Notes: a model not told the origin generated them from the letters alone. A stretch of 64,000 nt of DNA from Spirochaetia bacterium (GCA_963675665.1 OY776510.1:4736001-4800000); one strand, 5' to 3'. Numbered from the stretch's first letter, positions 35,140 through 64,000 are shown. Made by a program: numbers and translations.

Positions 35140-37038
35140 TCAATAAATCTCATCTATAACCCAACCGAGATCAAGTTCATGTAACTTTGCGCATCTAGGC
35201 CGTCCTTCTTCATCCCAATTCATCATTTCATAAAGGAGATCTATTGCTTTATTGAATTCAACTTCATCTATCCTTGCATCATCAAGATTTTCTTTTTTTA
35301 GAAATTCATACATTCGTTCAGGAAGCTTATCGTCTTTGCGTCTATAGCCCTCTCTGATATTGAATGCCTTGGCAAGATTTACACGACGCTCACCCAGTTT
35401 CATAACCTCCCAAAGACTGTTCTCCCACCCTGTTACAGCATCCATAATATCAATAAGGTGCTTCATTGTAAAAGATCGGACCGGGGCAAAAGTCAGCACA
35501 CAAAGTGTGAGAGAATCCATAAAACTGAAATGATTTTGAAGGTATACAAAATTTCTGACCTTTTCAGGTCCGATATACTGAGAATTTAAACGCTTGAGAA
35601 TACCGAGAGGTTTTGCCTGTTCAACATATACTTCAGGCGCAAACTCATCAAAGTCGTTATCATGCTCTACCACAACATGATCTCCACCGATAGGCGAACA
35701 TGCATAACCAAGACCAACGCCGGTTTTTACACGTGGGTCATGTAGCGCCAACTCCATTCCCTTCGTATGTATGGCGTATTTATCGCTACCCTTGCCGATA
35801 ATTTCAGAAGCCTTCTTTGTTCCTTCAGCAAGCAGTGCTCCGAACGGTCCTTTCCTGAAAACTATTCTGTCGATTAAATCAAGCACAAGAGCTTCATTAC
35901 CGAATTCCAGTTTTAATCCGTCAGTATCTTCTTCCGTTAAAATTCCGTTTTCAAAACATTCTATTGCAAAAGAAATCGTCATTCCTGTTGAGATTGTATC
36001 AATGCTATATTTATTGCACAGCTCATTTGCCTTGGCTACATATTCAATATTTGTTATGCCAAGATTTGAACCGAATGAGGACAGCGTCTCGTATTCAGGC
36101 CCTCCATAAAATGGGTCTACATTATAAGGTTCACCGGTCTTCACAACACGTTTACATGCTACCTGGCAAGCCCAACACCTTTCGCCTTTTTCCAGTATGG
36201 TTTCAGACATATAAGTACCTGATAACTTTTCTCCATCTTCAATAGAACCGTACTTAAAGTTTTTTGTAGGGAACTCTTCAAGCTCAACCTGATGTGAAAC
36301 ATAATCTGCTGATCCAAAATCATGACCGCTTTTGTTCGCAGGATTGTTCATATAATTGGCCCCAAACCATTTGCCATGCTCAATAATTCTGTCTCTATCA
36401 AAAAACTCCGGCTTATTTGTGCCCCGGCACACTACAGCTTTCAGGTTTTTCGAACCCATTACAGCCCCGGAGCCTCCACGGCCGTTTGCATGCTTACACT
36501 CATTCAGGATACATGCATATCTGACCAAATTCTCACCGCCGGGACCAATAAGCAGCATACGGGATTTCGGCTCACCAATTTCCTCACGAATTATTTTCTG
36601 GGCTTCACCGGTAACCCTTCCCCATACACTTTCGGCGTTTCGGATACTGACTTCTCCATTATTAATATACAAATAAACAGGTTTTTCCGACTTCCCCTTC
36701 ACTACAACTGCGTCAAAACCTGAAAATTTAAGTTCAGGCCCCCAGTATCCGCCTGCTTCCGAATCCAGAAAAGCATTTGTCAGCGGTGATTTTGTCGTAA
36801 CTGCATGTCTTGAGAAACCTGCAAGCGGGGTTCCGGTAAGAATACTTGCTGAAAACACTATTACATTTTCAGCACTAAGCGGATCAATATTCGCTTTCAT
36901 TTCTTTTAATAAGTAATAAGCTCCCAGACATCCCCCACCCATATATGTTCTATAAAAGACTTCATCCGGTTCTTCTATATAATGAGTATGATCTGTCAAA
37001 TTTACATGTAAAATCCTTCCATTATACCCAAACGGCAT
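35140..37038 (-). CDS. W/Mo aldehyde:ferredoxin oxidoreductase (AOR family), copy 1
   Basis: GYNGRILHVNL, KSPLT, IGPGGENLV, GRGGSGAVMGSKNLKA, CWACQVAC, GPEYET, DTISTG. Confidence 0.92.
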   Translation of the reverse strand: MPFGYNGRILHVNLTDHTHYIEEPDEVFYRTYMGGGCLGAYYLLKEMKANIDPLSAENVIVFSASILTGTPLAGFSRHAVTTKSPLTNAFLDSEAGGYWGPELKFSGFDAVVVKGKSEKPVYLYINNGEVSIRNAESVWGRVTGEAQKIIREEIGEPKSRMLLIGPGGENLVRYACILNECKHANGRGGSGAVMGSKNLKAVVCRGTNKPEFFDRDRIIEHGKWFGANYMNNPANKSGHDFGSADYVSHQVELEEFPTKNFKYGSIEDGEKLSGTYMSETILEKGERCWACQVACKRVVKTGEPYNVDPFYGGPEYETLSSFGSNLGITNIEYVAKANELCNKYSIDTISTGMTISFAIECFENGILTEEDTDGLKLEFGNEALVLDLIDRIVFRKGPFGALLAEGTKKASEIIGKGSDKYAIHTKGMELALHDPRVKTGVGLGYACSPIGGDHVVVEHDNDFDEFAPEVYVEQAKPLGILKRLNSQYIGPEKVRNFVYLQNHFSFMDSLTLCVLTFAPVRSFTMKHLIDIMDAVTGWENSLWEVMKLGERRVNLAKAFNIREGYRRKDDKLPERMYEFLKKENLDDARIDEVEFNKAIDLLYEMMNWDEEGRPRCAKLHELDLGWVIDEIY

Positions 37039-37061
37039 TTCCACTCTCCTTCATTGAAAAA

Positions 37062-37346
37062 TCAGCCTCCTGCAAGAGGGGGCAAAAGTATGAGTTTATC
37101 TCCGTCTTCCAGAATTTCATCAGGAAGAACCCTCTTTCTGTTTTTAATACAAAGCCACATAAACCCATACTTCTCTGAAAAGAGTATGTTCCTAAGCGTA
37201 TGATCATATTTAATGCATAATCCTTCTGCCAAAGCAATAAAATTCGAACCCTTCTCAATTTGAATCACAATTTCATCTTTCCCGATTATCTTTTTTAATT
37301 GTGATCTCAAGACCAAATTAATTGTTATCAAAGACTTTTCCTTCAT
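37062..37346 (-). CDS. MoaD/ThiS-family sulfur carrier
   Basis: 94 aa ending LEDGDKLILLPPLAGG; adjacent to AOR. Confidence 0.85.
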   Translation of the reverse strand: MKEKSLITINLVLRSQLKKIIGKDEIVIQIEKGSNFIALAEGLCIKYDHTLRNILFSEKYGFMWLCIKNRKRVLPDEILEDGDKLILLPPLAGG

Positions 37347-37370
37347 TAAAAACAGGATTATACTTATGTA

Positions 37371-37442
37371 TTCCCGGCGACCATAGGCTGCCGGGAAACA
37401 AACTTGTTAAAGCTGTATGGGAGAACATTCTTCCATACGGCT
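37371..37442. repeat. Two hairpins between the binding-protein gene and moaD
   Basis: TTCCCGGC...GCCGGGAA (37371-37397) and AGCTGTATGGGAGA/TCTTCCATACGGCT (37411-37442). Confidence 0.65.
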
Positions 37443-37446: not shown

Positions 37447-38487
37447 TTAGAAATCAAAGTTGTCAATATTGTTTTTATCGAAAACTGTCGGTGGACCTGT
37501 AATTACTATTCTCTTCCCGCCGATTTCTCTGTCTCCGAGACCGGGAACATTGAATTTTGCTCCTTCTGTTGCATTAATTTCACCTGTTGCAAGAGCTGCT
37601 GAAAGATAAGCTGCCAGGTATCCTTCATCAAACGGGCTCCAGAGGGCAAAAGCCGTTACAGTTCCATTTTTAACGAATCTTCTCATCTGATTCGGCGTAC
37701 CAAGACCGGTAACCTGCAGCTGCGGAGCTCTTCCCGCATTCTCTACGACCTGAGCGGACGCTGCAACACCTACGGTTGTCGGTGAAATTATACCTCTGAG
37801 TTCCGGATACTTTGTAAGAAGAGCTTCAGCTTCTGTAGTACTTTTCTGCGGATCATCATCGCCGTATACTATGTCGACCAGTTTCATCTTTGAATACTTG
37901 GAGTTTTTTAAGGTTTCTTTCATGCCTTCAATCCAGTAATTCTGATCCGGAGCATCCGTTGTTGCACTAACGATTGCAATATCTCCTTCGTAATCGATAA
38001 GAGAACCCATAAGTTCAATCTGGCTTGAACCGGTAACTTCAAAATCCATGGGAAGAACAGCTGCATCTCTGTAGTCTTCGCTTCCGGGAATATCGGAATT
38101 GACAATTATAATCTTTATTCCCTTATCCATAGCCTGTTTGAATACCTGGTTCAGGGCATCCGGACTATTAGGCGAAATGGCAATTACATCGACGCCTCTC
38201 TGGATCTGTGTCTTGATGAAAGGGATCTGAGAAGTTGCTTCGGCGGTAGCCGGTGCAACAGTTGTAAAACTGAATCCAAGCTCTTCCGAAGCTTTTTTAA
38301 ATCCGCCGATAATCGAATCGAAATACGGATTGCCGGTATTCTTCGGAATATAGACAATATCCAGATCTGCAGCAGTCTTTGCTTCTGCACCGGCAGCAGC
38401 CTCTTGCTGTCCGCCTGCATATGCATTGAAAATACATCCAAGACTTGTTAAAAGCACAAGCAGGACAATTAGAGTTTTCTTTTTCAT
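37447..38487 (-). CDS. Sugar ABC transporter substrate-binding protein, rhamnose(RhaS)/LsrB-like family
   Basis: IPKNTGNPYF, ISPTTVG, VTGLGTPNQM, LWSPFDEGY; clearly related to but distinct from 26256-27272. Confidence 0.87.
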   Translation of the reverse strand: MKKKTLIVLLVLLTSLGCIFNAYAGGQQEAAAGAEAKTAADLDIVYIPKNTGNPYFDSIIGGFKKASEELGFSFTTVAPATAEATSQIPFIKTQIQRGVDVIAISPNSPDALNQVFKQAMDKGIKIIIVNSDIPGSEDYRDAAVLPMDFEVTGSSQIELMGSLIDYEGDIAIVSATTDAPDQNYWIEGMKETLKNSKYSKMKLVDIVYGDDDPQKSTTEAEALLTKYPELRGIISPTTVGVAASAQVVENAGRAPQLQVTGLGTPNQMRRFVKNGTVTAFALWSPFDEGYLAAYLSAALATGEINATEGAKFNVPGLGDREIGGKRIVITGPPTVFDKNNIDNFDF

Positions 38488-38538
38488 GAAACTCCTCCTT
38501 AAATAATATTTGCAGCAGGAAACTCCTGCTTAACACCC

Positions 38539-39543
38539 TTATTTTCGCTTACTGTATATGTAATTCGACAATACGATTGCAAAAATCAGTAAGAATCCGA
38601 GTACAGTAAGCTGTTTTTCTATCTTGATATTGGCTACGCTCATACCGGTTTTAAGACATACAAGCACAAAGAAAGCTATAAACGTACCTATAACATTTCC
38701 GCGGCCGCCGTTGATATCCGCTCCACCGAGCAGGGCAATCGTAACCACCTCCAATTCCCCGCCGCTTGCAAGATTATACCGGGCAATTCCAAGCCGGGAC
38801 ATCATCATTATTCCGCCGAAAGCCGATACGACTCCCGACATAATGAAAAGTATCATTTTGATATTTTTCACATTAATTCCCGAATAGATAGCGGCTCTTT
38901 CACTTGTACCGAGAGCATACACCTGCCTGCCGAATACGGATTTATTCAGAATAATCGCCATGATAACAAACAAAATGATAAAGACAATAAGGGGAGCAGG
39001 AATAAATCCGAATAAATATTTCATATCAATTCCTACAAACCAGTCGGGAAAATGACCTATCGAATGATCGCCAAGAAGAACCTGAGCAAGTCCGCGAAAC
39101 AGAGACAGTGTTCCAATTGTAACAATAATAGGAGGCAGCGAAAATTTTGTTATTATAAATCCATTGAAAGCGCCTAGCGCTGCACCGGTAATGAGACCTA
39201 TGATCAGAGTTATGCCGAAAGGCAGCCCTTTTTCATAAAGCGTTGCTGAAAAACAGGCTACAAGCGCCATTGAGGAAGCTACCGACAGATCAATCTGGCC
39301 ACTAATTATCACAAAGGTCAGAATTATAGCAATTATTCCATATTCTATATACATTGAAGAAGAATCAAGCACAAAGAACAGATCTCTGAAATACGGCGAC
39401 AATACCGAACCGAGAATAATGCTGGCCAGCAGCATGAATATTGTTCCGAATTCCGGATGAAGAAAACGGTTATGTTTTTCGACCGAATTGGAAGACTTTA
39501 TCATTGATGTTTTTGTATTGTTAATCTTTTCTGCTGTATTCAT
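38539..39543 (-). CDS. Sugar ABC transporter permease
   Basis: GQIDLSVAS, GRQVYALG, ELEVVTIALLGG. Confidence 0.9.
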   Translation of the reverse strand: MNTAEKINNTKTSMIKSSNSVEKHNRFLHPEFGTIFMLLASIILGSVLSPYFRDLFFVLDSSSMYIEYGIIAIILTFVIISGQIDLSVASSMALVACFSATLYEKGLPFGITLIIGLITGAALGAFNGFIITKFSLPPIIVTIGTLSLFRGLAQVLLGDHSIGHFPDWFVGIDMKYLFGFIPAPLIVFIILFVIMAIILNKSVFGRQVYALGTSERAAIYSGINVKNIKMILFIMSGVVSAFGGIMMMSRLGIARYNLASGGELEVVTIALLGGADINGGRGNVIGTFIAFFVLVCLKTGMSVANIKIEKQLTVLGFLLIFAIVLSNYIYSKRK

Positions 39544-40550
39544 TATTTATTTACTCCTGCAGCTTCTACCCTGTTCTGAACTGTTTTATCTACTACAAGC
39601 GCAATCAAAATGATAATTCCGTACATAGCCTGCTGCCAAAACGCAGATATGCCAAGTACTGCAAGCGCTGTGTTCACAATACCAAGGAGAATACAGCCGA
39701 TAACTACGCCAAGAACAGATCCGGTTCCTCCTGAAACACTGGTTCCTCCGATTACTGTCGCAGCAATTACCGTAAACTCGAACCCGACTCCTGTTATAGC
39801 AGGGTTTACATAACCGAAACGTGAAGCATACATAATTCCTGCAAAACCTGCACAGCCGCCAGCTATTAGATAAATCAGTATAATTACTCTGTTAACATTT
39901 ATACCTCTGAGTTTGGCGGCTTTAAGATTACTTCCTATTGCATAGATTTCTCGTCCATAATGTGAGTACTTCATAAATATATGCGCAACAACCGCAATAA
40001 ATGCAGCAAAGATTATTATCCACGGGATAATCACTATGGACGGTTGCGAAAGCTGAATCAATTTTTCAGGGATATAATTAGGGTCAATCTGCCTTCCGCC
40101 GCTGACAATAAACAGCAGCCCTCTGTAGCCGTTAAGCGTTCCAAGAGTTACTATTATTGCCGGTATTTTCAATTTTGAGATCAGTACGCCATTAAAAAAA
40201 CCGAGGATTGCTCCAACCAGAGTTCCAAGAATAAATGCCGGGAGAACCGGAAAACAAGGATTTTGAATAAAAAGCAGACCGACAGCAATACCTGCAAAAC
40301 CCAGAATAGAACCCAGCGACAAATCGATATTGCCGGTTATAATTACCATCATTTCGCCCATTGCAACAACAATAATAAGCGGAACATAAAGAAGTATACT
40401 TTTAATATTATCATACAGCAGAAAATTCGGTTCAATAACTGCTACCACTACAAAAGCCAGAACTGCAGTTACAAGTACACCCATTTCCCTCATTCTGAAT
40501 ATTTGTCCAATTTTGCTGATTTTCACAGTCTGTGTTTCAATGCTCATCAT
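39543..40550 (-). CDS. Sugar ABC transporter permease
   Basis: GNIDLSLGS, GREIYAIGSN, EFTVIAATVIGGTSVSGGTG. Confidence 0.9.
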   Translation of the reverse strand: MMSIETQTVKISKIGQIFRMREMGVLVTAVLAFVVVAVIEPNFLLYDNIKSILLYVPLIIVVAMGEMMVIITGNIDLSLGSILGFAGIAVGLLFIQNPCFPVLPAFILGTLVGAILGFFNGVLISKLKIPAIIVTLGTLNGYRGLLFIVSGGRQIDPNYIPEKLIQLSQPSIVIIPWIIIFAAFIAVVAHIFMKYSHYGREIYAIGSNLKAAKLRGINVNRVIILIYLIAGGCAGFAGIMYASRFGYVNPAITGVGFEFTVIAATVIGGTSVSGGTGSVLGVVIGCILLGIVNTALAVLGISAFWQQAMYGIIILIALVVDKTVQNRVEAAGVNK

Positions 40551-42064
40551 ACGACAATATCCTTTTCGATTTTCTTGGTTGCGGCAGTCATTATGGCATT
40601 ATCCGTTATTTCACCGCCTTCAAATACTCCGGTAATCAAACCCTCTTTCATTACAAGAACTTTATCGCTGAGAGATGTTATTTCCGGAAGCTCGGAAGAT
40701 ATCATTACAATAGCCTTACCTTGTGCGGACAGTTCATTAATAATCTTATATACTTCTTCTTTCGCACCGACATCTATTCCTCTCGTCGGTTCATCGAGGA
40801 TCAGTATCTCGGGTTCAGGCAGCAGCCATTTTGCAATTACTACTTTCTGCTGATTGCCGCCGGAGAGCTCCTGCACAGCCTGGTTTCCATCCCTCATCTT
40901 GATATTCAGTTTTTTTCGGTATTCTTCGCACAGTTCTTTTTCTTTTTCCTGATCAACCCATCCATTCTTCGATATTTGCCAGGGAACCGAATAGGTCATA
41001 TTTCGGGCGATACCATACGGCAGAAACAGCCCCTCGTACTGCCGGTCTTCAGGAAGATAACACATCTTCTTCCTTATTGACTCCATCGGATTGTTAATCA
41101 CAACAGATTCCCCCCGAAGCAGGAGTTCACCGGAATCATGGGAATCTATTCCGAAGATAGCCCTTGCCACCTCGCTCCGGCCGGCACCAACCAGACCGGC
41201 GAGTCCTACAATTTCTCCGGCCCGTACTGAAAAACTGATATCGCTGAAAATTCCATGTGATCCGAAATTCTTCACTTCGAGCAGCACATCACCTTTTGCA
41301 GTCTTTTCACGATGAATATGGTCCTTCATTTCACGCCCGATCATCAGTTCGATCAGTTTCTGCTTTGTTACTTCGCTCGTATTATAAGTGCCGATGTAAT
41401 TTCCATCCCTTAGCACACTGATTCTGTCCGATATTTCGAGTACTTCATCAAGCCTGTGGCTGATAAAGACAAACGATTTACCCTGTTTTTTCAGGTTGGT
41501 TACTATTCTGAAAAGATTGTCAACTTCACCCGGCGTTAAAGAAGCAGTCGGTTCATCCATGATAATCAGTTCGGCATTTTGAGACAGGGCACTGATGATT
41601 TCCACCATCTGCTGATCAGCAATCGACATTCCTTTAGTCTTTGCTGCAGGATTTAGTTTGACATCGAGCGAGTCAAGAAGCTGTTGTGATCTGATATATA
41701 TATCTTTCCAATCTATTGAAAATTTATAGTCCTTTCTGGTATGACCCGCAAAAATATTTTCTGCCACATCCAAATCAGGAAAAACCAGCGGTTCCTGATG
41801 TATTAGAGCAATACCGTTTTCTATTGCGTCATGCGGATTTCTGAAATTTACTCTTTCTCCGTTAAGTTCCAGGTGCCCTGTTGTGGGTTGATGCACGCCG
41901 GCAACTATATTCATTAGCGTAGATTTTCCGGCACCGTTTTCTCCAATTACAGCATGCACTTCACCCATACTGATCTTTATATTTACATCTTTAAGAACAC
42001 GCACTCCGCTAAATTCTTTGACAATATCAATAGCCGCTATTAATGGCTTTTGATTTTCCTCCAT
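40547..42064 (-). CDS. Sugar ABC transporter ATPase (two fused ABC domains)
   Basis: GENGAGKST, MDEPTASL, LSGGNQQKV, LDEPTRGIDVGAK; start at ATG 42064. Confidence 0.92.
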   Translation of the reverse strand: MEENQKPLIAAIDIVKEFSGVRVLKDVNIKISMGEVHAVIGENGAGKSTLMNIVAGVHQPTTGHLELNGERVNFRNPHDAIENGIALIHQEPLVFPDLDVAENIFAGHTRKDYKFSIDWKDIYIRSQQLLDSLDVKLNPAAKTKGMSIADQQMVEIISALSQNAELIIMDEPTASLTPGEVDNLFRIVTNLKKQGKSFVFISHRLDEVLEISDRISVLRDGNYIGTYNTSEVTKQKLIELMIGREMKDHIHREKTAKGDVLLEVKNFGSHGIFSDISFSVRAGEIVGLAGLVGAGRSEVARAIFGIDSHDSGELLLRGESVVINNPMESIRKKMCYLPEDRQYEGLFLPYGIARNMTYSVPWQISKNGWVDQEKEKELCEEYRKKLNIKMRDGNQAVQELSGGNQQKVVIAKWLLPEPEILILDEPTRGIDVGAKEEVYKIINELSAQGKAIVMISSELPEITSLSDKVLVMKEGLITGVFEGGEITDNAIMTAATKKIEKDIVV

Positions 42065-42081
42065 AAACACTCCTTCCATAT

Positions 42082-42813
42082 TTAAACCATTAAAAGTCCG
42101 CCGTTGACATTTAAAGTTGCACCTGTTATAAAATTCGATTTCTCTGATGAAAGAAATTCAATTGCCTCCGCAACCTCTCTCGGATTAGCAAATCTTTTTA
42201 ATGGTATTAATTCTTTTAGTCTTTCGTTAACATCATTCTCCCAATCATCCGTCATCGGAGTCTGTGTGGGACCAGGCGCTACACAATTTACATTTACATT
42301 ATATTCAGCTGCATATAAGGCAAGTGATTTGGTAAGACCGATTACTCCAGCTTTTGATGTTGAATAATGTATACCCACAGCTTTTCCTCCACCGATTCCT
42401 GCATTTGAAGAAATATTGACTATTTTACCATATTTCTGCATTGTCATAATTTCCAATGCCTTCTGACAACAGAAAAAAACAGCTTTCAGATTAACAGCAA
42501 GCATATAATCCCACTTCTCCGGTGTTATCTGATTAATTCCTTCTAGAGAAGTTATTCCTGCACAATTCAACAAAATATGTAATTTGTGGAATTTTTTTCT
42601 AATATTATCAAATAATCTGTCTACCTGATTACTTTCAGTCAGATCTGTACTGAAGAAATGATAATCAGGATTCTTCTTCGATTGAAAATCAGGATTCTGT
42701 TTAATATCCGCACCGATAACTGTACAGCCGTTTTTAAGCATCAAATCAACAGCAGATTGACCTATACCGCTCTCAGAACCGGTAATAAGTACTATTTTTG
42801 TTTCAGTATTCAC
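42082..42813 (-). CDS. Short-chain dehydrogenase/reductase (SDR)
   Basis: ITGSESGIG, NCAG, YSTSKAG (YxxxK), NCVAPG; an Asp after beta-2 (GADI) suggests NAD(H). Confidence 0.9.
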   Translation of the reverse strand: MNTETKIVLITGSESGIGQSAVDLMLKNGCTVIGADIKQNPDFQSKKNPDYHFFSTDLTESNQVDRLFDNIRKKFHKLHILLNCAGITSLEGINQITPEKWDYMLAVNLKAVFFCCQKALEIMTMQKYGKIVNISSNAGIGGGKAVGIHYSTSKAGVIGLTKSLALYAAEYNVNVNCVAPGPTQTPMTDDWENDVNERLKELIPLKRFANPREVAEAIEFLSSEKSNFITGATLNVNGGLLMV

Positions 42814-56254: not shown

Positions 56255-57285
56255 ATAGCTTTTATACCTTTCTCCGCCTCAAGAAGACCAAATGTCTGTT
56301 CCCAGTCTTCCAGCCTGAAATTGTGCGTAATAATGTTCGACAGCATATCTCCTTTATCCCGAAGAAGACCAAGGGCCTTGTCCCAGGATGTATAGCTTGA
56401 ACTGAAGTTGAACCTTATGTCGAGTACCTTGTGCATTGCAGCGTTCCACGGGAACTGTATATATTCATCGGCGCAGAGTCCTATCGCTGAAACCCTTCCC
56501 TTACGTCGCAATGCCGCAACTCCGTCTCTAATCGCAGGAGGCGCCCCGCTCGTCTCTATCAGAACATCCGCTCCGCGCCCGCCAGTCAGCTCGTTTATCC
56601 TGTCCTGCAGGTTCTCTTTCTGCACATTGACGATATAGTCGGCGCCGAGCCTCCGTGCAGCATCAAAACGGATTATCTCTCCGCTGTTCATTCCTGTCAT
56701 CAGGACACTGCCTGCACCCTGCATTTTGGCAATAAACGTAGCCAGTATCCCCATCGGTCCGGCGCCGGTTACAAGCACAAAGTCCTGCATCTCTATTACC
56801 CCGGCTTCAGACACCTGGTGCACGGCTATGGCAAGGGGTTCGGCAAGCGCTGCAAGTTCGTAGCTGACTCCTTCGGGTATCCGGTGAATAAGCTGAGCAG
56901 GCATTTTAAGGTAATCTGCAAAGGCCCCGTCTATTCCCCAGCCCGGAGAGCGCTTGTCCGCGCACATCTGAACCATTCCCTGCCGGCAGTATTCGCAAAG
57001 CCCGCAGTTCATCGAATGGGGTTCGGACACCACCCTGTCTCCGACGCTTACGTTTTTTACAGCCGCACCCGCTTCGACAACCTCCCCGGAGAACTCATGC
57101 CCGAGAATGACCGGCGGCCAGTATGGAAAATGATCGTGCCGGATATGCAGATCGGTTCCGCATACCCCTGCTGCCTTCACTTTTATAAGAACCCAGTCGG
57201 GCTCGCCCAGTTCCGGCGCAGGCACTTCGCGCACTTCGATATTTCCGGGTCCTTTTGCTGTTTTTACCAACGCTTTCATTGTCAT
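56236..57285 (-). CDS. Zinc-dependent medium-chain alcohol/polyol dehydrogenase
   Basis: CGTDLH, GHEFSG, CGLCEYC...C, LAEPLA, GAGPMG. Confidence 0.9.
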   Translation of the reverse strand: MTMKALVKTAKGPGNIEVREVPAPELGEPDWVLIKVKAAGVCGTDLHIRHDHFPYWPPVILGHEFSGEVVEAGAAVKNVSVGDRVVSEPHSMNCGLCEYCRQGMVQMCADKRSPGWGIDGAFADYLKMPAQLIHRIPEGVSYELAALAEPLAIAVHQVSEAGVIEMQDFVLVTGAGPMGILATFIAKMQGAGSVLMTGMNSGEIIRFDAARRLGADYIVNVQKENLQDRINELTGGRGADVLIETSGAPPAIRDGVAALRRKGRVSAIGLCADEYIQFPWNAAMHKVLDIRFNFSSSYTSWDKALGLLRDKGDMLSNIITHNFRLEDWEQTFGLLEAEKGIKAIYMPED

Positions 57286-57530
57286 CCTCCAAGAACAACA
57301 GGAACAATTTGAAAATGATCATTCTCATTTATATTTCCAAAGTTATCCGGACTGATTGCCATCCCGTTTCTGTAAACATTGTAAAGAATCTTATCTCCCA
57401 TAACATTCTTTATTGCCTGAAACAGGGAATCCAAATCATTACATCCGGATACCGGTATTTCAATAGTTAGATTATCGGTCCCGGAAATCTTCTTAATACT
57501 TCCGATAAACTCCAGATTAATCGAAACCAC
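57282..57530 (-). CDS. MoaD/ThiS-family sulfur carrier
   Basis: 82 aa ending IVPVVLGG; adjacent to AOR. Confidence 0.82.
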   Translation of the reverse strand: MVSINLEFIGSIKKISGTDNLTIEIPVSGCNDLDSLFQAIKNVMGDKILYNVYRNGMAISPDNFGNINENDHFQIVPVVLGG

Positions 57531-57534: not shown

Positions 57535-59475
57535 TCAGCAAGCCTTCAGTTCAGACAAAATCTTTGCTGCCCAGGGGATACCGAGGTAGTGAACGGTTGA
57601 CTCAAGGGGAATACCTTCTTCACTGTCCCAACCCATCATTTCATAATAAGAACTCACTGCTTTTTCAAATTCTTCCCGATCAAGTTTTGAACCGTTGAGG
57701 GGGCCTTCCTGTAATCCCTCAAACATTCTGTCCGGTATATTCAGATCATCTTCTTTGGTCATTCCGTGTTTCAGATTGAAAAGCCTGGCCATTGTTGTCC
57801 CCCTTCGTCCGGCTTCAATTAATTCCATCAGGCTAGTATCCCAGCCGGTTACAGCCTTAACGATCTCGGGGATATGCGTAATTTTCAAAGTCCTTACAGG
57901 CTGAAACGTGAAAATACAGATATCAAGCATGTTGAACAGACTCCAGTAATGCTGAAGATGAGTAAACAGAGCAACTTTTTCAAAACCAAGAGATAAACTC
58001 GGGACAGGATCATACCACCCCAATGAATATAGAGTCTTCAGCATGGAATGCGGATCATCAGCGGTATGACTGTATCCTGTAAGCGCTGAATCAAAAGCCC
58101 CGTCATGTTCATGCTGCAGGTGGTCCGCTCCTGTCGGAGAAACGGCATAGGCAAGTCCCACACCGAACTTGGCCCGGGGTTCTGCAACAGCAAATTCCTG
58201 GCCTTTTACCTGCATAGAATATTTTTCAGCGCCCTTCCCTATAATCTTTCCGGCTTTTTTGCTGCCTTCCGCCAGGATGTTTCCAAAACCGTCTCTGTAT
58301 GCAATTTTTTTAAGCATTGAAAACATGGCTTCAACATTACCGAATTCAAGTTCTATACCGTCAGTGTCTTCTTTGGATATTAAGCCTCTCTCATAACACT
58401 CCATTGCGAAAGCAATTGTAACCCCTGCTGAAACGGTATCAATACCCAGTTGATTGCAGATTTCATGTGCTTTAGGCGCGGCATACATATCGGAGATACC
58501 GCAGATTGAACCGAAAGCTCCAAGGGTCTCGAACTCCGGACCTCCGAGGCGGCCGTTTATTTTATATGGTTTTTCAGCTTCAAAAACCTGCTTGCAACGC
58601 AGCGGACAGGCATAACAACCTTCCGTTTTCTTCTTCAGTGCCGCATGCAGTTCGTCGGCATCATACTCAAGTTTTTCAAAATACCCTTTCCGGTAATTAT
58701 ATGTGGGAAGTGTTCCAGCCGCCTGAGAACCAAAATAGTAGTCACTTGTTCCATGTTGATGTTGATTTTTGTTATCGTTATTATTCTGAAAATTCTCAGT
58801 GAAATACCTGAAAATTTCTTTCAGTTTATCCTGATTGAAAAACTCCTGCCTTCCGGTTCCACGAACGACCACAGCCTTAATATTTTTTGAACCCATTACA
58901 GCGCCCATTCCGGTCCGACCGTGGTAATGAGAAAGGTCATGCGCAATACCGGCAAATTTTACGAGATTCTCACCGGCAGGCCCAATAATAAGTGTTTTCA
59001 GTTTTGCTTCGCCTGTTTCTTCAATCAGCATGTCATTTGTTTCAAGCACTGTTTGCCCCCATAAATGAGAAGCATCTTTCAGTTCGATTCTGTCGTCTTT
59101 GATAAAAAGGTAAACAGGTTTTTCAGCCCGGCCTTCAAGAATTATTCCGTCGTAACCCGCACTTTTTAATTCAGGGCCCCAGAATCCTCCTGATTCTGAT
59201 TCTCCGTAAAACCCCGTAAGTGGAGATTTGGCACCGACTGAATGCCGTCCTGCACCGGGAATTTTTGCCCCTGTAATAACGCTTGCAGTGAAAATCAGTT
59301 TATTCTCCGGAGATAGAGGATCGATACCGGCTTCGAGCTCATTTAAGAGGTAATAACCTATTACACCTCTTCCCCCGAGATATCTGCGGAAAAAGTTTTC
59401 TCCCGGTTCATCAAAAGTAATGCATCCGTTTGAAAGATTGATTCTTATGATCTTATTATGAAAACCGTAGGTCAT
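57535..59475 (-). CDS. W/Mo aldehyde:ferredoxin oxidoreductase (AOR family), copy 2
   Basis: KSPLTG, IGPAGENLV, GRTGMGAVMGSKNIKA, CYACPLRC, GPEFET, DTVSAG. Confidence 0.92.
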   Translation of the reverse strand: MTYGFHNKIIRINLSNGCITFDEPGENFFRRYLGGRGVIGYYLLNELEAGIDPLSPENKLIFTASVITGAKIPGAGRHSVGAKSPLTGFYGESESGGFWGPELKSAGYDGIILEGRAEKPVYLFIKDDRIELKDASHLWGQTVLETNDMLIEETGEAKLKTLIIGPAGENLVKFAGIAHDLSHYHGRTGMGAVMGSKNIKAVVVRGTGRQEFFNQDKLKEIFRYFTENFQNNNDNKNQHQHGTSDYYFGSQAAGTLPTYNYRKGYFEKLEYDADELHAALKKKTEGCYACPLRCKQVFEAEKPYKINGRLGGPEFETLGAFGSICGISDMYAAPKAHEICNQLGIDTVSAGVTIAFAMECYERGLISKEDTDGIELEFGNVEAMFSMLKKIAYRDGFGNILAEGSKKAGKIIGKGAEKYSMQVKGQEFAVAEPRAKFGVGLAYAVSPTGADHLQHEHDGAFDSALTGYSHTADDPHSMLKTLYSLGWYDPVPSLSLGFEKVALFTHLQHYWSLFNMLDICIFTFQPVRTLKITHIPEIVKAVTGWDTSLMELIEAGRRGTTMARLFNLKHGMTKEDDLNIPDRMFEGLQEGPLNGSKLDREEFEKAVSSYYEMMGWDSEEGIPLESTVHYLGIPWAAKILSELKAC

Positions 59476-59487: not shown

Positions 59488-60552
59488 CTATAAGGTCAAT
59501 GCTTTTTTAAGCTCGACAGTTTCCGACAGGCCGTCAGCAACACCTATTTTATACGAAACCGAATAGGTCTCCCCCGCCTCAAGGTATTTCAGCCTGCCGT
59601 TTTCTCTTGCTTCCATACGCCCCTCGGGAATACAGTTTCCGGGTTCAAAAGCAGCGACATAATCCTGGCAACCCATCATTTTCCATTCGTTAAAAAATGG
59701 GAGTTCTTCAGGTGAGTAAACAAGATAGGCGCCGAAGTTCAGACTTTCATTGATAACAGCCGAATACACTTTATGTCCCTTTTCAGGCATCTCATGCAGA
59801 AAGCATTCATATTCATAACCCGGCTGAGGAGATTCCATTCTTTCGTATTCTCCGTTGCCATTGATTGCACTGTCCGTCCACGGCTTTACTTCAACAGCGC
59901 GTGTATAATAACCGGAATTCTCGCTAACTACCGGGAAACCGAAATTGACATGATAGAGAAGCATAAACGGCATTTTTTCAAATCCTGCATTTACAAATTT
60001 GTCAAAAATCTCAATTTCACTGCTGCCTGCCCTGCATTTGATTTCACGTTCCATCACCAGGTTCTCAGCATAAAGACAGGATTCCCTAACTTTTCCTTTG
60101 ACTGTATATACCGGCAGTCCTTCTTCCAGATGTTCTTCATAAAAAAAAGATTCTGCCGGAGTGTGGGATATTCGGCCGTGAATACCTAAAACATCATCAC
60201 CGTCTGTTCCCGAAGCTCCTGCCTGGGTCAAACCGCATGTAGTAAGAAGACCGCCAGAAAAAGAACGGAGAAATCCGTTTATACTGTTTTCATAATGTCC
60301 GGGGGCTACTATTCCGTTCTTGGACAACCATGCAACAGGACGGCCCCGGTATTCAGCTGTTGCTATATCCAGACTTCTGTCGGGCAGAACTGTGAAATTC
60401 AATCCGGTGCCGTTCTTAATCAGAAGCGCTCTGGAACCCCGCGCCTTTCCCTGAATATATTCAACCTCGGTTATTCCTCCGAACTGATCCGGCGAACCGA
60501 AATATTTTCTTATATCCTCATCCGTAAGATTCTTTCCGTATAAGCTCTTCAT
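59488..60552 (-). CDS. Aldose 1-epimerase-like protein (DUF4432, DeoM-like mutarotase)
   Basis: VLPDRSLDI, FSGGLLTTCGL, GIHGRISHTPA, MLLYHVNFGFP, AFEPGN. Confidence 0.82.
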   Translation of the reverse strand: MKSLYGKNLTDEDIRKYFGSPDQFGGITEVEYIQGKARGSRALLIKNGTGLNFTVLPDRSLDIATAEYRGRPVAWLSKNGIVAPGHYENSINGFLRSFSGGLLTTCGLTQAGASGTDGDDVLGIHGRISHTPAESFFYEEHLEEGLPVYTVKGKVRESCLYAENLVMEREIKCRAGSSEIEIFDKFVNAGFEKMPFMLLYHVNFGFPVVSENSGYYTRAVEVKPWTDSAINGNGEYERMESPQPGYEYECFLHEMPEKGHKVYSAVINESLNFGAYLVYSPEELPFFNEWKMMGCQDYVAAFEPGNCIPEGRMEARENGRLKYLEAGETYSVSYKIGVADGLSETVELKKALTL

Positions 60553-60554: not shown

Positions 60555-61529
60555 CTACTCCAACACATTCTTCAGTCTTATCTTTCTTGTCAGCATATCA
60601 ACACTTACGACCCCTACAAGAATCAGTCCTGATGCAAAAAGCTGCCAGTAGGTCGATACACTGCTGAGAATAAGAATATTATCAATTAATCCGACAAGAA
60701 GCGTTCCCATAAGCGCGCCTATTACCGTGCCTTCACCTCCGCTTAAGGAGGCCCCCCCGATGATGCAGGCGGCAATCGATTTAAGTTCAACACCCGTTCC
60801 GGCTGTAGCCATCATCGACATCATCCTGGACGTAAGAACAACCCCCGCCAGGGCCGCCAGAACTCCTGTCAGAATATATGTACAGATTCTTACAAACTTT
60901 ACATTAATCCCGGAGAGTTTAGCAGCTTCAATATTTCCCCCGACAAAATAGACCAGTCTTCCCCAGCTGAATTTTCGCATAAATTGATCAATAACTAATA
61001 CGATGGCAAGCATCAGCATGATAGGTACGGGGAACCCAAGTATCCGACCTGCTCCGAGAAAAGCAAAACTGTCGGGAAGACCATAGATAGGCATTCCCTG
61101 GGTAATTGCCAGGGCCAGGCCTCTTACCATACTCATTGTTCCAAGTGTCGCTATAAAAGGATTTATTTCCACCTGGGTAATCAATACACCGTTAATGAAT
61201 CCGATAAATGCCCCTACTATCAACGCTATTAAGATTGAAACTGAAACCGGGACTCCACTCTCCATCAGTTTTGAAAGAACAACCCCGCAGAGAGCGAGTG
61301 TTGAACCCACAGAGAGATCGAACCCGTTTCCCGCCATCACAATCATCATTCCAACTGAAATAATACCTATGCTCAGTATTCCGTATCCTATCGCCTCAAT
61401 ATTGGTAATCGAAAAGAAATATTGATTTGTAATTGAAAAGACAATAAATAAAATCAGATTTATTAAAAAGATTAATAACGCACGGGATTTAAATATTTTG
61501 GAAAAGTAATTTTTATTTATTGAGACCAT
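60555..61529 (-). CDS. Sugar ABC transporter permease (RbsC-like)
   Basis: GFDLSVGS, PFIATLGTM, GGNIEAAKLSGI, ELKSIAACIIGGASLSGGEG. Confidence 0.9.
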   Translation of the reverse strand: MVSINKNYFSKIFKSRALLIFLINLILFIVFSITNQYFFSITNIEAIGYGILSIGIISVGMMIVMAGNGFDLSVGSTLALCGVVLSKLMESGVPVSVSILIALIVGAFIGFINGVLITQVEINPFIATLGTMSMVRGLALAITQGMPIYGLPDSFAFLGAGRILGFPVPIMLMLAIVLVIDQFMRKFSWGRLVYFVGGNIEAAKLSGINVKFVRICTYILTGVLAALAGVVLTSRMMSMMATAGTGVELKSIAACIIGGASLSGGEGTVIGALMGTLLVGLIDNILILSSVSTYWQLFASGLILVGVVSVDMLTRKIRLKNVLE

Positions 61530-63048
61530 TTCTTTTCTCCCTGGATTTAAAATCTACTATACTTGCCATAATGCTTTCCTGAGTAACGCTATCGTCATTA
61601 TCAATCAACTGAACTGTCTTTCCGTTATCCATAACAAGGATTCTGTCGCTCATGCCTAAAACTTCCGTCATTTCGGATGATATCAGAATAATGCTTTTAC
61701 CCTGATCCGCAATATTTTGCAGATGCTGATGTATAGCCTTTTTTGCGCCTATATCTATTCCCCTGGTGGGTTCATCAACTATTAAAATATCCGGTTCAAT
61801 TGAAACTGTCTTTGCCAGAAGAATTTTCTGCTGATTTCCGCCGCTCAATGTTCCTACAAGAATTCTGCCGTTACTGGCTTTAATATCAAAGAGTTTCACA
61901 AACTCATCCACTTTTCGTTTTAAAAGATCATTCTTTACTATTCTGTTTCTGCTGTATCTGTTTACATCTATAGACAGCATATTTTCTTCAATAGAAAAAC
62001 TTAAAAAAAGGCCCAGCTTTTTTCGGTCTTCCGTCAGATATCCGATACCCAACTCCATAGCCTTTTTGGGGTTTTTTATTTTAACTTCCTTTCCATTAAG
62101 AAGAATCCTTCCTGCAGAATGAGGAAGCGCTCCGAAAATTGCAAGAGCAAGCTCTGTTCTTCCTGCGCCTATCAATCCTGAAATTCCCAGTATCTCTCCC
62201 TTTCGTAATTTAAAATTTATATTTGAAAAACATTCTCTGTTGGAAAAGTTCTCCAGCTCAAGAACTGCTTCATCTTTTATCTGTATCTTTTTTTCAGGAA
62301 ACATTGTTCCGAGCTCTCTGCCGACCATCAAACCTGCAATTTTATCTTCCCGCATCTCTTCCTTCTGCAGTTTATCTATGAATTCACCGTCTCTCAGAAT
62401 GACGACCTGATCACAGAGTTCGACTATTTCACTGATTTCATGAGAAATATAGAGTATTGAGATGCCTTCATTTTTTAATTGTCCCAGTAATTTGAATAAT
62501 TTTTGAACAACCGGAATACTGAGAGGCCCGGTCGGTTCGTCTAAAATCATCAATTTGGGATTATAAGCAATAGCCCGAAGAATTTCGATCTGTTCACGTT
62601 CGGCAAGAGATAAATCTCCGACAACTGCAGCCGGATCCAGATTAAGTTCGAAAAGTTCAAGTAATTTAGCCGCTTCTCTGGTCTGCTTTTCAAAGTCTAT
62701 TTTATGCAGAGTCATTCGCCTGTTTTTATTCTTAAGATCCTTTACAAAAAGGTTTTCCCGAACGGACAGATTCTCACAAAGACTCAGTTCCTGATGTACT
62801 ACGGAAATTCCTTTATTAAGGGCATCATTGGGCGAACTGAATTTCTGCTCCACGCCGTTTAATATAATTTCACCCTCATCGATATCTATTGCTCCCCCGA
62901 TTGTCTTGATCAGGGTACTTTTACCAGCACCGTTCTCTCCAACAATACCGATAATCTCTCCTTTGTTTACTGAAAAAGAAACTCCTTTAAGCGCTTTTAC
63001 TCCGGGAAAGGTTTTTTTTATATTTTTCAGTGTCAATAATGATTCCAC
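61513..63048 (-). CDS. Sugar ABC transporter ATPase (RbsA-like)
   Basis: KTFPGVKAL, GENGAGKST, LDEPT, LSGGNQQKI; GTG start at 63048 with AGGAG SD. Confidence 0.92.
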   Translation of the reverse strand: MESLLTLKNIKKTFPGVKALKGVSFSVNKGEIIGIVGENGAGKSTLIKTIGGAIDIDEGEIILNGVEQKFSSPNDALNKGISVVHQELSLCENLSVRENLFVKDLKNKNRRMTLHKIDFEKQTREAAKLLELFELNLDPAAVVGDLSLAEREQIEILRAIAYNPKLMILDEPTGPLSIPVVQKLFKLLGQLKNEGISILYISHEISEIVELCDQVVILRDGEFIDKLQKEEMREDKIAGLMVGRELGTMFPEKKIQIKDEAVLELENFSNRECFSNINFKLRKGEILGISGLIGAGRTELALAIFGALPHSAGRILLNGKEVKIKNPKKAMELGIGYLTEDRKKLGLFLSFSIEENMLSIDVNRYSRNRIVKNDLLKRKVDEFVKLFDIKASNGRILVGTLSGGNQQKILLAKTVSIEPDILIVDEPTRGIDIGAKKAIHQHLQNIADQGKSIILISSEMTEVLGMSDRILVMDNGKTVQLIDNDDSVTQESIMASIVDFKSREKRNGLNK

Positions 63049-63067
63049 CGACAATCTCCTTAAATCG

Positions 63068-63098
63068 GGAGAGGAAACTGACATTCGGTTTCCTCTCC
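63068..63098. repeat. Hairpin between the binding-protein and ATPase genes
   Basis: GGAGAGGAAAC...GTTTCCTCTCC, 11-bp stem. Confidence 0.65.
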
Positions 63099-63108
63099 TT
63101 TCCGGTTA

Positions 63109-64000
63109 TTACTTTTCTTCGAAATTCCTGTAGTTGGTTTTATCAATTATCATAATTCCGGTATCAGTAAAATTGGGCAATGTATTGACTCCGTTTTTCT
63201 GTACAGCATCAACATCCCAGCCCTTTACAAGCTCAAGAGTATCGTGGTTATAATCATACAGCATTTTTAAACCGTAATATGACATGGCAAATGTCCTCTG
63301 GACCATTGTAGAATGAATAACCCCTTCTTCAATCAGCTTCAGCGTTTGAGGCATGGGATCAAAACCTACAAGAGTTATCTTTCCTGTTTTATTGAGGTTC
63401 TTTACGGCTGCACCCATTCCTATAGGGCTTACTCCGTCGGTGCCGAATATACCGGAAATATCGGGATTTGCGATGATCATTTCTGAATTGACCTTCGTTG
63501 CAATTTCAGTATCAGCCTTGTCGTCTACAACAGCCACAACCTCCATCCCGGGATATTTGCTGTCAATCCGGTCAATAAAACCGCGGGCTCTAGCTTCGCA
63601 GGCTTCAAAACCTACAAGATTAGAGATGCCGACTTTGCCTTTTCCGTTTAATAATTCAGCCATCAAATCTGCAGCTTTCTGGCCGGCAGCATAACCATCA
63701 GTGCCGATATAGGAAAGCCGTTTACTGTCTGGCGAATCAGTATCGACAGCTATAACCGGGATGCCGGCGGCTATTGCTTTATTTATTACGGGAACAAATG
63801 CCGGCCCGTTGAGCGGACCAACCAAAAATCCGGCCGGGTTCTTTGATATTTCCTGTTCCATTATTGCAATCTGCTGTTCAACCGAATCGCCCATAACACC
63901 GGTAAAAAATGTCTGAACACCGAGTTCGGCTGCCGCTGCTTCAAATCCGGCTTTATGGACCTGCCAGTATTGTATTCCGATATGCGGAGCAATAAGAACA
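63109..64000 (-). CDS. Sugar ABC transporter substrate-binding protein (RbsB-like), 5' end outside the window
   Basis: Frame open to the window edge (..YWQVHKAGFEAAAAELGV..); GIPVIAVDTD, YIGTDGYAAG, VGFD. Confidence 0.88.
   Translation of the reverse strand, partial: VLIAPHIGIQYWQVHKAGFEAAAAELGVQTFFTGVMGDSVEQQIAIMEQEISKNPAGFLVGPLNGPAFVPVINKAIAAGIPVIAVDTDSPDSKRLSYIGTDGYAAGQKAADLMAELLNGKGKVGISNLVGFEACEARARGFIDRIDSKYPGMEVVAVVDDKADTEIATKVNSEMIIANPDISGIFGTDGVSPIGMGAAVKNLNKTGKITLVGFDPMPQTLKLIEEGVIHSTMVQRTFAMSYYGLKMLYDYNHDTLELVKGWDVDAVQKNGVNTLPNFTDTGIMIIDKTNYRNFEEK

Follow-up and report, generated by a model that had tools for sequence, protein, structure and literature searches.

Gene content of the island and its central operon

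We analysed 64,000 nucleotides of the genome of a Spirochaetia bacterium (GCA_963675665.1 OY776510.1; bases 4,736,001-4,800,000 of a single 5.15-Mb contig), here called the window, in which an island of three operons occupies positions 35140-64000. The central operon encodes a coenzyme A (CoA)-acylating aldehyde dehydrogenase (ALDH), an acyl-CoA synthetase (SucCD), an E1-E2-E3 complex of the thiamine pyrophosphate (TPP)/lipoyl type, a nickel-pincer racemase (LarA) and a malic enzyme, and the operons on its two sides, the feeders, encode sugar importers and aldehyde:ferredoxin oxidoreductases (AORs). With moderate confidence we read the stretch as a non-phosphorylative oxidative sugar pathway in three operons with separate regulation, the central module of which would end in the conversion of malate to pyruvate. 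Open reading frames (ORFs) came from a greedy ORF caller and were assigned to families with Pfam and NCBIfam (June 2026). The gene content of the original prediction, made from the sequence alone, was borne out, as all 25 ORFs that it named are present on the same strands and in matching families, including three GntR/FCD (FadR-type) regulators (FCD1, FCD2 and FCD3), and an extra ORF of 82 amino acids at 57282-57530 brings the island to 26.

The central operon lies on the minus strand, and the gaps between its genes are mostly 3-11 bp, with two larger ones of 108 and 86 bp that each hold a weak stem-loop. Its first gene, ALDH (54010-55383), has as best solved relative 8cei, the acylating succinate-semialdehyde dehydrogenase (SSADH) of Clostridium kluyveri (474 bits), and as second-best NCBIfam match SauS (409 vs 600; here and below, scores on a model are set against its cut-off). 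Residues K66, K70, C242, S243, H364 and T365 are conserved and align without gaps to the C. kluyveri enzyme. According to one report on the C. kluyveri succinyl-CoA reductase, Lys70 and Ser243 hold the distal carboxylate, and propionaldehyde dehydrogenase is hydrophobic there (PMC10249356); both residues are kept in 20 of 21 operon ALDHs. The next two genes, SucC (52862-54004; NF001913, 384.9 vs 370) and SucD (51996-52865; TIGR01019, 374.5 vs 353.2; NF004230, 369.5 vs 336), form an ADP-forming acyl-CoA synthetase of the succinyl-CoA synthetase type, with both subunits above curated cut-offs, and are the sole SucC and SucD found in the genome. The score on the beta model of malate-CoA ligase is 267.7 vs 604. 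The genomic context argues for a hydroxylated four-carbon acid as the probable product.

E1-alpha (50910-51887; E1_dh domain), E1-beta (49921-50898; Transket_pyr/Transketolase_C), E2 (48607-49911; Biotin_lipoyl, E3_binding and 2-oxoacid_dh) and E3 (47196-48596; dihydrolipoyl dehydrogenase, 504.6 vs 408.8; Pyr_redox_2/dim) follow, so that by Pfam an E1 of the alpha/beta heterotetramer type, a lipoyl-E2 and an E3 are encoded together as in the acetoin dehydrogenase complex. E1-alpha remains under the pyruvate dehydrogenase (PDH) equivalog TIGR03182 (374.2 vs 393.85) and E2 is below the PDH cut-off of TIGR01349 (337.8 vs 445); no NCBIfam equivalog is reached beyond its cut-off by ALDH, E1 or E2. 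The racemase gene (45924-47192) encodes a nickel-pincer malate racemase of the LarAH6 family, which passes the equivalog NF052593 over residues 5-415 (565.5 bits vs 500). The malic enzyme (44362-45837; 491 amino acids; Pfam malic 62 bits, Malic_M 83.8 bits) matches the PDB entry 3nv9, 'Malic enzyme', with 686 bits over residues 9-487 (479 residues) and is 74-85% identical in the spirochaete copies of the operon. Other malic enzymes in the PDB, from bacteria or archaea, are far more distant from it than 3nv9 (351 bits at best); the source of 3nv9 is presumably a eukaryotic parasite, and the malic enzyme would then have been acquired laterally. The last gene, FCD2 (43638-44354; Pfam), encodes a GntR/FadR-type regulator and recurs at the same position with 66% identity in loci L023 and L029 (loci and genomes from our searches carry L and G numbers).

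Conservation and replacement of the central module

The conserved central module and its replacements in other genomes are the most valuable result of this analysis. A scan with E1-beta, using one genome per species, gave 80 loci in other genomes, 43 with at least 60% identity and 37 below, in which neighbours were labelled by tblastn with the window proteins (E value at most 1e-15, query cover at least 50%). Flanking ORFs were annotated in part (57 of 103, 95 of 126, and 67 of 124 plus 7 others, in successive sets of loci), and many of the 43 loci end at contig ends. Neighbours of the module were confined to the group of higher identity: ALDH was found in 20/43 loci vs 0/37, SucC in 19 and SucD in 20 vs none, LarA in 17 vs none, malic enzyme in 12 vs none and an FCD regulator in 22 vs none. 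A homolog of the Zn-dependent alcohol dehydrogenase of the right operon (Zn-ADH) was present in 12/43 loci, where it stands beside E1 or ALDH genes, vs 3/37, and a short-chain dehydrogenase (SDR) in 16/43 vs 6/37. Of the 21 loci whose flanks reach 6 kb or more on each side, 11 have ALDH and SucCD, 9 the racemase and 8 the malic enzyme, and 15 have at least one of them. One locus of the scan, L038, is from a cultured species, Sedimentibacter hydroxybenzoicus. The order ALDH-SucC-SucD-E1a-E1b-E2-E3-LarA-malic enzyme(-FCD) is kept around the best ALDH matches, with complete synteny at 62-85% identity in another spirochaete metagenome-assembled genome (MAG; L023). Among the 40 relatives searched, the best ALDH matches (55-64% identity) belong to other families of the same class and not to the same genus, with the exception of a contig fragment of the same genus (78%).

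In a quick maximum-likelihood tree, the window E1-beta falls into a clade of 40 rows (SH-aLRT 98), which holds all 30 rows with module neighbours (21 with ALDH/SucCD, 9 with only LarA or malic enzyme) and spans Bacillota, Spirochaetota, Verrucomicrobiota and a MAG of Desulfovibrionaceae. This clade is apart from the alphaproteobacterial PDH-type rows, and the five other E1 sets of the genome fall outside it; a separate PDH-like set, which adjoins citrate synthase, groups with the alphaproteobacterial rows. The operon-linked LarA proteins pass the malate racemase model NF052593 in 18 of 19 cases (518-581 bits), the exception being L033 with 396 bits. The data support the view that the central genes constitute one conserved functional unit, which is common to many anaerobes.

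In several genomes, parts of this unit are replaced by non-homologous genes. Two loci of Bacillota MAGs (L037 and L041) carry a homolog of archaeal-type glyceraldehyde-3-phosphate dehydrogenase (GAPDH; 2czc, 242 bits) and a phosphoglycerate kinase (PGK) homolog after E1-E2-E3, in the place of ALDH and SucCD; no SucCD is present in either locus, and the new pair is followed by malic enzyme (L037), lipoate-attachment genes and the racemase. Since ALDH with SucCD and GAPDH with PGK alike would gain ATP by oxidising an aldehyde to an acid, release of an aldehyde by the TPP/lipoyl complex, as by acetoin dehydrogenase, is most likely, and its acyl-CoA product would need no special ligase. At the other end of the module, two loci of Verrucomicrobiota MAGs (L071 and L091) have an enzyme of the Iso_dh family (isocitrate/isopropylmalate dehydrogenases) in place of racemase and malic enzyme, which in L071 passes the tartrate dehydrogenase model TIGR02089 (488 vs 470). 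The tartrate dehydrogenase family also decarboxylates D-malate. The malic enzymes of the operon belong to two unrelated classes, one similar to 3nv9 (686 bits) and the other of MaeB type (384-434 bits on PRK12861). The pattern of replacement supports a sequence of reactions in which an alpha-hydroxyketone would be cleaved to acyl-CoA and an aldehyde, the aldehyde converted to an acid with formation of ATP, and D- or L-malate converted to pyruvate.

The GAPDH and PGK genes, at L037:13737-16042 and L041:14264-18507, are a case of archaeal-type genes within a bacterial catabolic operon, and the GAPDH-like part of L041 lies in one ORF of 996 amino acids together with the large subunit of a molybdenum (Mo) hydroxylase, which may be a fusion or a sequencing frameshift. 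The five further E1/E2/E3 sets of the window genome are located in L109 (2,130,001-2,150,000), L110, L111, L112 and L113. The set of L109 starts with a DeoR gene, E2 and E3, continues with E1 alpha and beta fused into a protein of 819 amino acids, and is followed by an uncharacterised protein of 445 amino acids, an SDR and the best RhaB-like kinase of the genome. The sets of L110 and L112 sit among genes for sugar-binding proteins, ROK, GFO and lactonase-like proteins. In L112 the set is interrupted by two identical-scoring transposase ORFs of the IS110 family (L112:7768-8880 and 16222-17334; genome about 1,288,768-1,298,334), one of which separates E1a from E1b and the other E2 from E3. With 16 matches to the AOR C-terminal domain, 33 to FGGY_N and 6 to Lar_N, these families are unusually large for a genome of 5.15 Mb. 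The settings of these complexes suggest that lipoyl complexes may be used repeatedly in the sugar catabolism of this organism.

Flanking operons, their recurrence and regulation

The left operon, on the minus strand, begins with the short-chain dehydrogenase SDR_L (42082-42813; Pfam adh_short), which reaches no NCBIfam equivalog. It continues with a CUT2-type sugar ABC transporter (37447-42079; Pfam families) composed of an ATPase (40547-42079), two permeases (39543-40550 and 38539-39543) and the binding protein SBP_L (37447-38487). Among solved structures, SBP_L comes closest to two rhamnose-binding proteins, 4kvf (257 bits) and 5bq3 (244 bits), and its score on the RhaS model TIGR02637 is 321.5, below the cut-off of 342.25. 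A small MoaD-like protein of 94 amino acids (37062-37346) precedes the last gene, AOR_L (35140-37044), which encodes a tungsten-type AOR (AFOR_N 245 bits, AFOR_C 387 bits) with 1aor as the closest solved structure (361 bits). The regulator FCD1 (42941-43645, plus strand; Pfam GntR and FCD) is divergent from this operon.

Directly to the left of the island lie an AraC-type regulator gene (34158-35048, plus strand) and, on the minus strand, L-rhamnose isomerase RhaA (32769-34034; 645 bits vs 572; the sole RhaA in the genome), a class II aldolase (31665-32765), which aligns with the N-terminal half in models of bifunctional rhamnulose-1-phosphate aldolase/SDR proteins, and a further LarA homolog (30431-31720), which stays under the malate racemase cut-off (372 vs 500). 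The aldolase is of RhaE type and is without the usual SDR half, and the transporter here is of true RhaS type (430 vs 342). The rhamnose region at 22544-35048 looks complete, with the RhaS-type ABC transporter, a histidine kinase with an AraC-type response regulator, the LarA homolog, the RhaE-type aldolase, RhaA and the AraC regulator. No FGGY kinase or rhamnulokinase is encoded in the window; the nearest FGGY kinase is about 47 kb off, and the three RhaB-like kinases elsewhere in the genome are all under the cut-off, the best one 2.6 Mb away. The earlier statement that the 29 kb contain no kinase, aldolase or dehydratase thus holds by Pfam inside 35140-64000 and fails for the neighbourhood, where the isomerase and the aldolase adjoin on the left.

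The right operon is also on the minus strand and begins with a binding protein gene (63109 to about 64158), which extends some 158 bp past the window end, so that this feeder is cut by the edge as previously noted; the full ORF is L001:109-1158. The best solved relative of this protein is 6sw4, 'arabinose binding protein' (193 bits), and its best NCBIfam match is the rhizopine binding protein (87 vs 420). A CUT2 ATPase (61513-63084) and permease (60555-61529), both recognised by Pfam, are followed by a DUF4432 protein with an aldose-1-epimerase-like fold (59488-60552; Pfam 290 bits), a second tungsten-type AOR, AOR_R (57535-59475; AFOR_N 257 bits, AFOR_C 393 bits), the MoaD-like protein of 82 amino acids and Zn-ADH (56236-57285; Pfam ADH_N and ADH_zinc_N), a secondary-alcohol dehydrogenase of the medium-chain dehydrogenase/reductase type. 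AOR_R is 43% identical to AOR_L, and both carry full-length AFOR_N and AFOR_C domains. Zn-ADH is nearest to L-threonine 3-dehydrogenases (5kia, 213 bits; NF003808, 268 vs 380) and scores 196 vs 450 on the model of the scyllo-inosose 3-dehydrogenase IolM. The regulator FCD3 (55511-56254, plus strand; Pfam), 46% identical to FCD2, is divergent from the central operon. Two labels of the original prediction have a narrow basis: 'mutarotase' relies on DUF4432, whose only solved relative is the 'hypothetical aldose 1-epimerase' 3ty1 (96 bits), and 'MoaD' on two ORFs that both end in Gly-Gly, of which the left one is below the cut-off of TIGR01687 (29.1 vs 49.5 bits) and the right one, weakly similar to it, has no family match. 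Beyond the right edge, a second ABC transporter and a sigma-54 two-component pair abut the right operon. The pair (L001:4862-8018) consists of a sigma-54 response regulator and a protein of 607 amino acids that combines ABC_tran-like and histidine-kinase ATPase domains, and is divergent from the second sugar ABC transporter.

Both feeders recur in other spirochaetes. The whole left operon including FCD1 is found in G024 and G213 (AOR 75-77%, binding protein 77-78% identity), and in G029 the orthologs of SDR_L and AOR_L directly precede orthologous E1 genes (75-80%), with no SucC found in this genome, which is 91% complete. Orthologs of SDR_L (46-58% identity) travel with AOR_L, homologs of FCD1 (45-54%) adjoin the AOR_L/SDR_L orthologs, and MoaD-like homologs (31-38%) occupy the same position in L116 and L117. 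Copies of the right operon occur in G128 (DUF4432 50%, AOR 66%, Zn-ADH 82%) and in G056, and in both genomes AOR_R orthologs (66-69%) have DUF4432 and sugar ABC genes as neighbours; the G128 copy has a distant LarA-like protein (L122:9919-11199; Lar_N 69 bits) between AOR and Zn-ADH, at the place of the 82-amino-acid ORF. A feeder and an orthologous E1 are both present in G024, G029 and G128. Around AOR homologs, 11 of the 18 spirochaete loci fetched have the AOR beside sugar ABC genes, and a role on the imported sugar or its direct product is therefore favoured. The co-occurrence of all three operons, proposed beforehand as a test, is only partly upheld, since among the 43 loci an AOR adjoins the central operon in 3 and DUF4432 in 5. 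The arrangement of three operons as a strict unit is particular to this genome.

The genes upstream of the module differ from genome to genome, yet they are of one kind. They encode sugar ABC transporters or TRAP or MFS acid importers, an SDR with a hydrolase of gluconolactonase or metallo-beta-lactamase type, a three-subunit Mo-hydroxylase with a hydrolase, or, in two loci of Verrucomicrobiota, an SDR with a fuconolactonase-like amidohydrolase and a RhaT-like carrier. Elsewhere the inositol 2-dehydrogenase equivalog IolG (412 vs 355) is found with an AP_endonuc_2 barrel and a protein of the M24 family, and other loci have creatininase-family proteins (IolN-like, 70.6 vs 245). Searches for two such arrangements in the window genome gave no useful context: of the inositol triad seen in G015 (IolG, AP_endonuc_2 and M24), only a distant IolG (45%) is present and the other two were not found by tblastn, and homologs of the MFS and small-ORF pair that precedes the operon in G012 lie here about 200 kb from the operon, an uninformative context. 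A further cluster in G008, of the same family as the window genome, combines a class III aminotransferase, an acylating ALDH paralog (50%), a malate-racemase-like LarA (53%), an AOR (43%) and a TRAP transporter (L127:5760-14945) and sits behind a sigma-54 activator. Such a cluster may produce malate from a hydroxylated omega-amino acid and would also fit the oxidation of a hydroxylated four-carbon semialdehyde.

The three operons look separately controlled, as suggested by their distinct operator-like sites and by the sigma-54 and ABC neighbours of the right operon. Two copies of AATGG(T/A)C(T/A)GACCTTT lie at 55414-55490 in the divergent promoter region of ALDH and FCD3; this motif has 4 matches vs 0.47 expected by chance, and is absent from the feeders, the downstream region and L001. 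A perfect 30-bp palindrome at 42828-42857, in the divergent promoter region of SDR_L and FCD1, is likely an operator and overlaps a promoter-like site on the minus strand (42874-42847). No operator is common to the three operon promoters. Our scan for promoters and terminators was near the shuffled expectation (38 vs 37.1 promoters, 29 vs 18.4 terminators). Three DNA sequencing runs of one study contain the central operon, and no RNA run is listed for it or for this organism.

Proposed pathway, alternatives and related systems

From the gene families, the conserved synteny and the module swaps, which are direct observations, we infer every chemical step and the substrates as follows. The flanking operons would import one rhamnose-like sugar and one other monosaccharide, and the tungsten AORs, the SDR and the DUF4432 protein would supply an oxidised sugar acid without use of ATP. 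Zn-ADH or the SDR would oxidise a secondary alcohol of this acid to an alpha-hydroxyketone, which the acetoin-dehydrogenase-like E1ab-E2-E3 complex would cleave, with acetyl- or glycolyl-CoA and the semialdehyde of a four-carbon dicarboxylate as products. This semialdehyde would be converted by the acylating ALDH to its CoA ester, and SucCD would free the acid with formation of ATP. We propose that this acid is malate, mainly the D-form, which the nickel-pincer racemase would convert to L-malate and the malic enzyme would then turn into pyruvate. More tentatively, the genes may represent an undescribed kinase-free route in Bacillota, Spirochaetota, Verrucomicrobiota and other groups, characterised by acetoin-dehydrogenase-type cleavage of keto-sugar-acids, malate semialdehyde coupled to substrate-level phosphorylation and a long-sought physiological source of D-malate for the racemase, with the spirochaete AORs acting as aldose:ferredoxin oxidoreductases. 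The outline given in the original prediction, from aldose through an acyloin to acyl-CoA and malate, agrees with the central unit and the replacement pattern; its dideoxyhexose substrate is a guess.

Several observations weigh against this proposal. G213 and G056 have feeder orthologs with a best E1-beta of only 53% and 46%, no SucC and no central operon found. Six of the 21 loci with flanks of 6 kb or more on each side contain an E1 of the clade without ALDH, LarA or malic enzyme. K70 and S243 are also present in both of the two ALDH paralogs elsewhere in the genome, so these residues discriminate poorly and speak for consistency only, not for proof. We know of no AOR that oxidises an aldose, and the AORs may oxidise a semialdehyde or lactaldehyde instead. 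Malate requires a CH2 group, and no sugar-acid dehydratase family occurs among the annotated flanking ORFs, which implies either that the substrate is already deoxygenated or that the four-carbon product is tartrate instead of malate. In the genome, enolase-superfamily and IlvD/Edd genes lie far off, as does the single class I fumarase-family gene detected in a search for tartrate dehydratase, which is uninformative. Oxidation of a hexose or 6-deoxyhexose at C1 and C5 followed by cleavage would yield glycolyl- or acetyl-CoA and tartrate semialdehyde, and L-rhamnose would end as meso-tartrate on this path. To reach malate semialdehyde, the path would have to start from dideoxyhexoses, from a keto-deoxy acid formed elsewhere, or from a 2- or 3-deoxy acid (e.g., 2-deoxy-5-keto-gluconate from the route for inositol).

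The same architecture could thus serve tartrate, a version that we take seriously while holding it unlikely. Common sugars (L-rhamnose, L-fucose, gluconate/idonate, or inositol via 5-keto-gluconate) would be converted through 5-keto-(6-deoxy)hexonates to acetyl- or glycolyl-CoA and tartrate semialdehyde, ALDH and SucCD would produce tartrate and ATP, the racemase would be a tartrate epimerase and the last enzyme would decarboxylate tartrate. Such a route needs no dehydratase, in line with the annotated flanks, and would suit the rhamnose-like left binding protein. It also has a parallel in plants and Gluconobacter, in which tartrate arises from 5-keto-gluconate by TPP-dependent cleavage, and the creatininase-family (IolN-like) proteins and IolM-like Zn-ADH beside the module fit a 5-keto-gluconate route. 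L071 and L091 point the same way by pairing the module with an SDR, the fuconolactonase-like amidohydrolase, the RhaT-like carrier and the Iso_dh enzyme, a tartrate dehydrogenase equivalog in L071. However, the activity that the pair of racemase and malic enzyme shares with the tartrate/D-malate dehydrogenase that replaces it is the conversion of D-malate to pyruvate, which supports malate. That ordinary malic enzymes from two unrelated classes have been recruited speaks against tartrate as well, and we know of no malic enzyme that uses it. Malate racemases do epimerise tartrates, but the assayed members prefer malate to tartrate and other 2-hydroxyacids (PMC7583248; PMC11770544), 60- to 180-fold over the tartrates to judge by the values given for LarAH62 (6.3e5 M-1 s-1 for malate vs 1.1e4 and 3.5e3 M-1 s-1 for the tartrates; PMC11770544), and nearly all operon-linked racemases pass the malate racemase equivalog. 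On balance we rate malate about twice as likely as tartrate.

It is improbable, in our estimation, that three unrelated ordinary operons are neighbours by chance, with a rhamnose importer and an L-lactaldehyde-oxidising AOR on the left, acetoin/2,3-butanediol or malate/pyruvate metabolism in the centre and plain sugar import on the right. The genes directly left of the island would agree with this, as RhaA, a RhaE-type aldolase lacking the lactaldehyde-dehydrogenase half and a true RhaS transporter lie there and RhaB-like kinases exist elsewhere in the genome; so would the different operator-like sites of the three promoters and the rarity with which feeders adjoin the central operon in other genomes. 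However, the left-operon orthologs in G024, G213 and G029 are not beside rhamnose genes, and are beside E1 genes in two of the three. The use of acetoin would leave unexplained the SSADH-like ALDH, the sole SucCD of the genome, the GAPDH/PGK replacement and the constant presence of racemase and malic enzyme, and the E1 clade is distinct from the PDH-like set.

Dideoxyhexoses, the substrates of the original prediction, found no support and appear quite improbable. Here 3,6- or 2,6-dideoxyhexoses, such as O-antigen sugars, would be converted to a methyl acyloin and cleaved to acetyl-CoA and malate semialdehyde, which is consistent with a malate product and the missing dehydratase, and a rhamnose-like binding protein could accept another 6-deoxy sugar. 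Nothing specific indicates these rare sugars, however; the left binding protein resembles rhamnose binders, the module is elsewhere joined to inositol 2-dehydrogenase, lactonases, Mo-hydroxylase or TRAP/MFS acid transporters, and its wide taxonomic spread together with the acid importers and the inositol 2-dehydrogenase equivalog argues for common substrates. Finally, E1ab/E2/E3 is very unlikely to be a true dehydrogenase of 4-hydroxy-2-oxoglutarate or 2-oxoglutarate that would deliver malyl- or succinyl-CoA to SucCD, with ALDH feeding the same ester: although its families are mostly 2-oxoacid dehydrogenases, SucCD passes succinyl-CoA synthetase cut-offs and one CoA ester for both enzymes would be economical, L037 and L041 keep the complex without SucCD and with GAPDH and PGK, so that an aldehyde still has to be handled, and the company of Zn-ADH and SDR genes fits the formation of a ketone better.

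For the oxidative pathway to malate that we favour, all enzyme families are known; the combination and the proposed cleavage step are not known from the literature searched. The acetoin dehydrogenase system (AcoA/AcoB/AcoC/AcoL) is alike in its alpha/beta E1, lipoyl E2 and E3, in the secondary-alcohol dehydrogenase alongside and in the proposed type of reaction, cleavage of an alpha-hydroxyketone to acyl-CoA and an aldehyde. It differs in that the complex described here occurs in sugar and sugar-acid clusters together with an SSADH-like ALDH, SucCD, malate racemase and malic enzyme, and in that the aldehyde would be an acid semialdehyde, not acetaldehyde. The literature searched holds no link of acetoin-type complexes to sugar acids, no description of this pathway, nothing relevant on DUF4432, on AORs with rhamnose or lactaldehyde or on acetoin dehydrogenase with glycolyl-CoA or D-malate, and no natural pathway via malate semialdehyde, which among the papers listed (25 of 243) occurs only in synthetic pathways.

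The non-phosphorylative pathways for L-rhamnose/L-fucose and deoxyribose share the kinase-free oxidation at C1, and feeders similar to theirs (an SDR or Mo-hydroxylase with a lactonase) accompany the module in other genomes. In those pathways a sugar-acid dehydratase acts before an aldolase, a hydrolase or a beta-keto-acid cleavage enzyme, whereas the island is without these enzymes: none of its 26 ORFs encodes a sugar-acid dehydratase, keto-deoxy aldolase or diketo hydrolase by which the classical L-rhamnose/L-fucose version would be recognised. Cleavage of the carbon-carbon bond is assigned here to the TPP/lipoyl complex, and ATP would be gained via a CoA ester. Several genomes in which the module is flanked by the IolG equivalog, IolM-like Zn-ADH, IolN-like creatininase-family proteins and AP_endonuc_2 recall the oxidative inositol pathway of Thermotoga type, but only IolG reaches its cut-off and neither IolG nor IolN is near the window. 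That pathway continues via tagaturonate, a kinase and an aldolase, and has no lipoyl complex.

An acylating ALDH paired with an ADP-forming CoA ligase is also known from the SucD of C. kluyveri (8cei) with succinyl-CoA synthetase, and from the pairing with the sulfoacetaldehyde dehydrogenase SauS. The direction proposed for the window differs, being oxidative from aldehyde to acid and ATP, and the acid would be malate, not succinate or sulfoacetate, because of the racemase and malic enzyme. The closest counterpart of the last steps is the nickel-pincer malate racemase Mar (LarAH6) with malic enzyme, to which the window corresponds in a LarA that passes the equivalog and a malic enzyme next to it. 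A malic enzyme within three genes is reported for 15% of LarAH6 contexts (Desguin et al. 2020, PMC7583248), and the discovery paper leaves the in vivo role of malate racemase open (PMC7583248). The window pair differs from the Mar system as the tail of a longer conserved operon, which would supply D-malate.

If the proposal is true, sugar chains would be cleaved in a new way, in which a lipoyl complex takes the place of an aldolase, the cell spends no ATP and the aldehyde yields an additional ATP. The nickel-pincer malate racemase would thereby obtain a physiological role, and a function would be suggested for part of the large expansions of AORs (16 matches) and of E1/E2/E3 (6 complexes) in this genome. 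A pathway could then be assigned to a gene cluster of many uncultured anaerobes of the gut, digesters and sediments.

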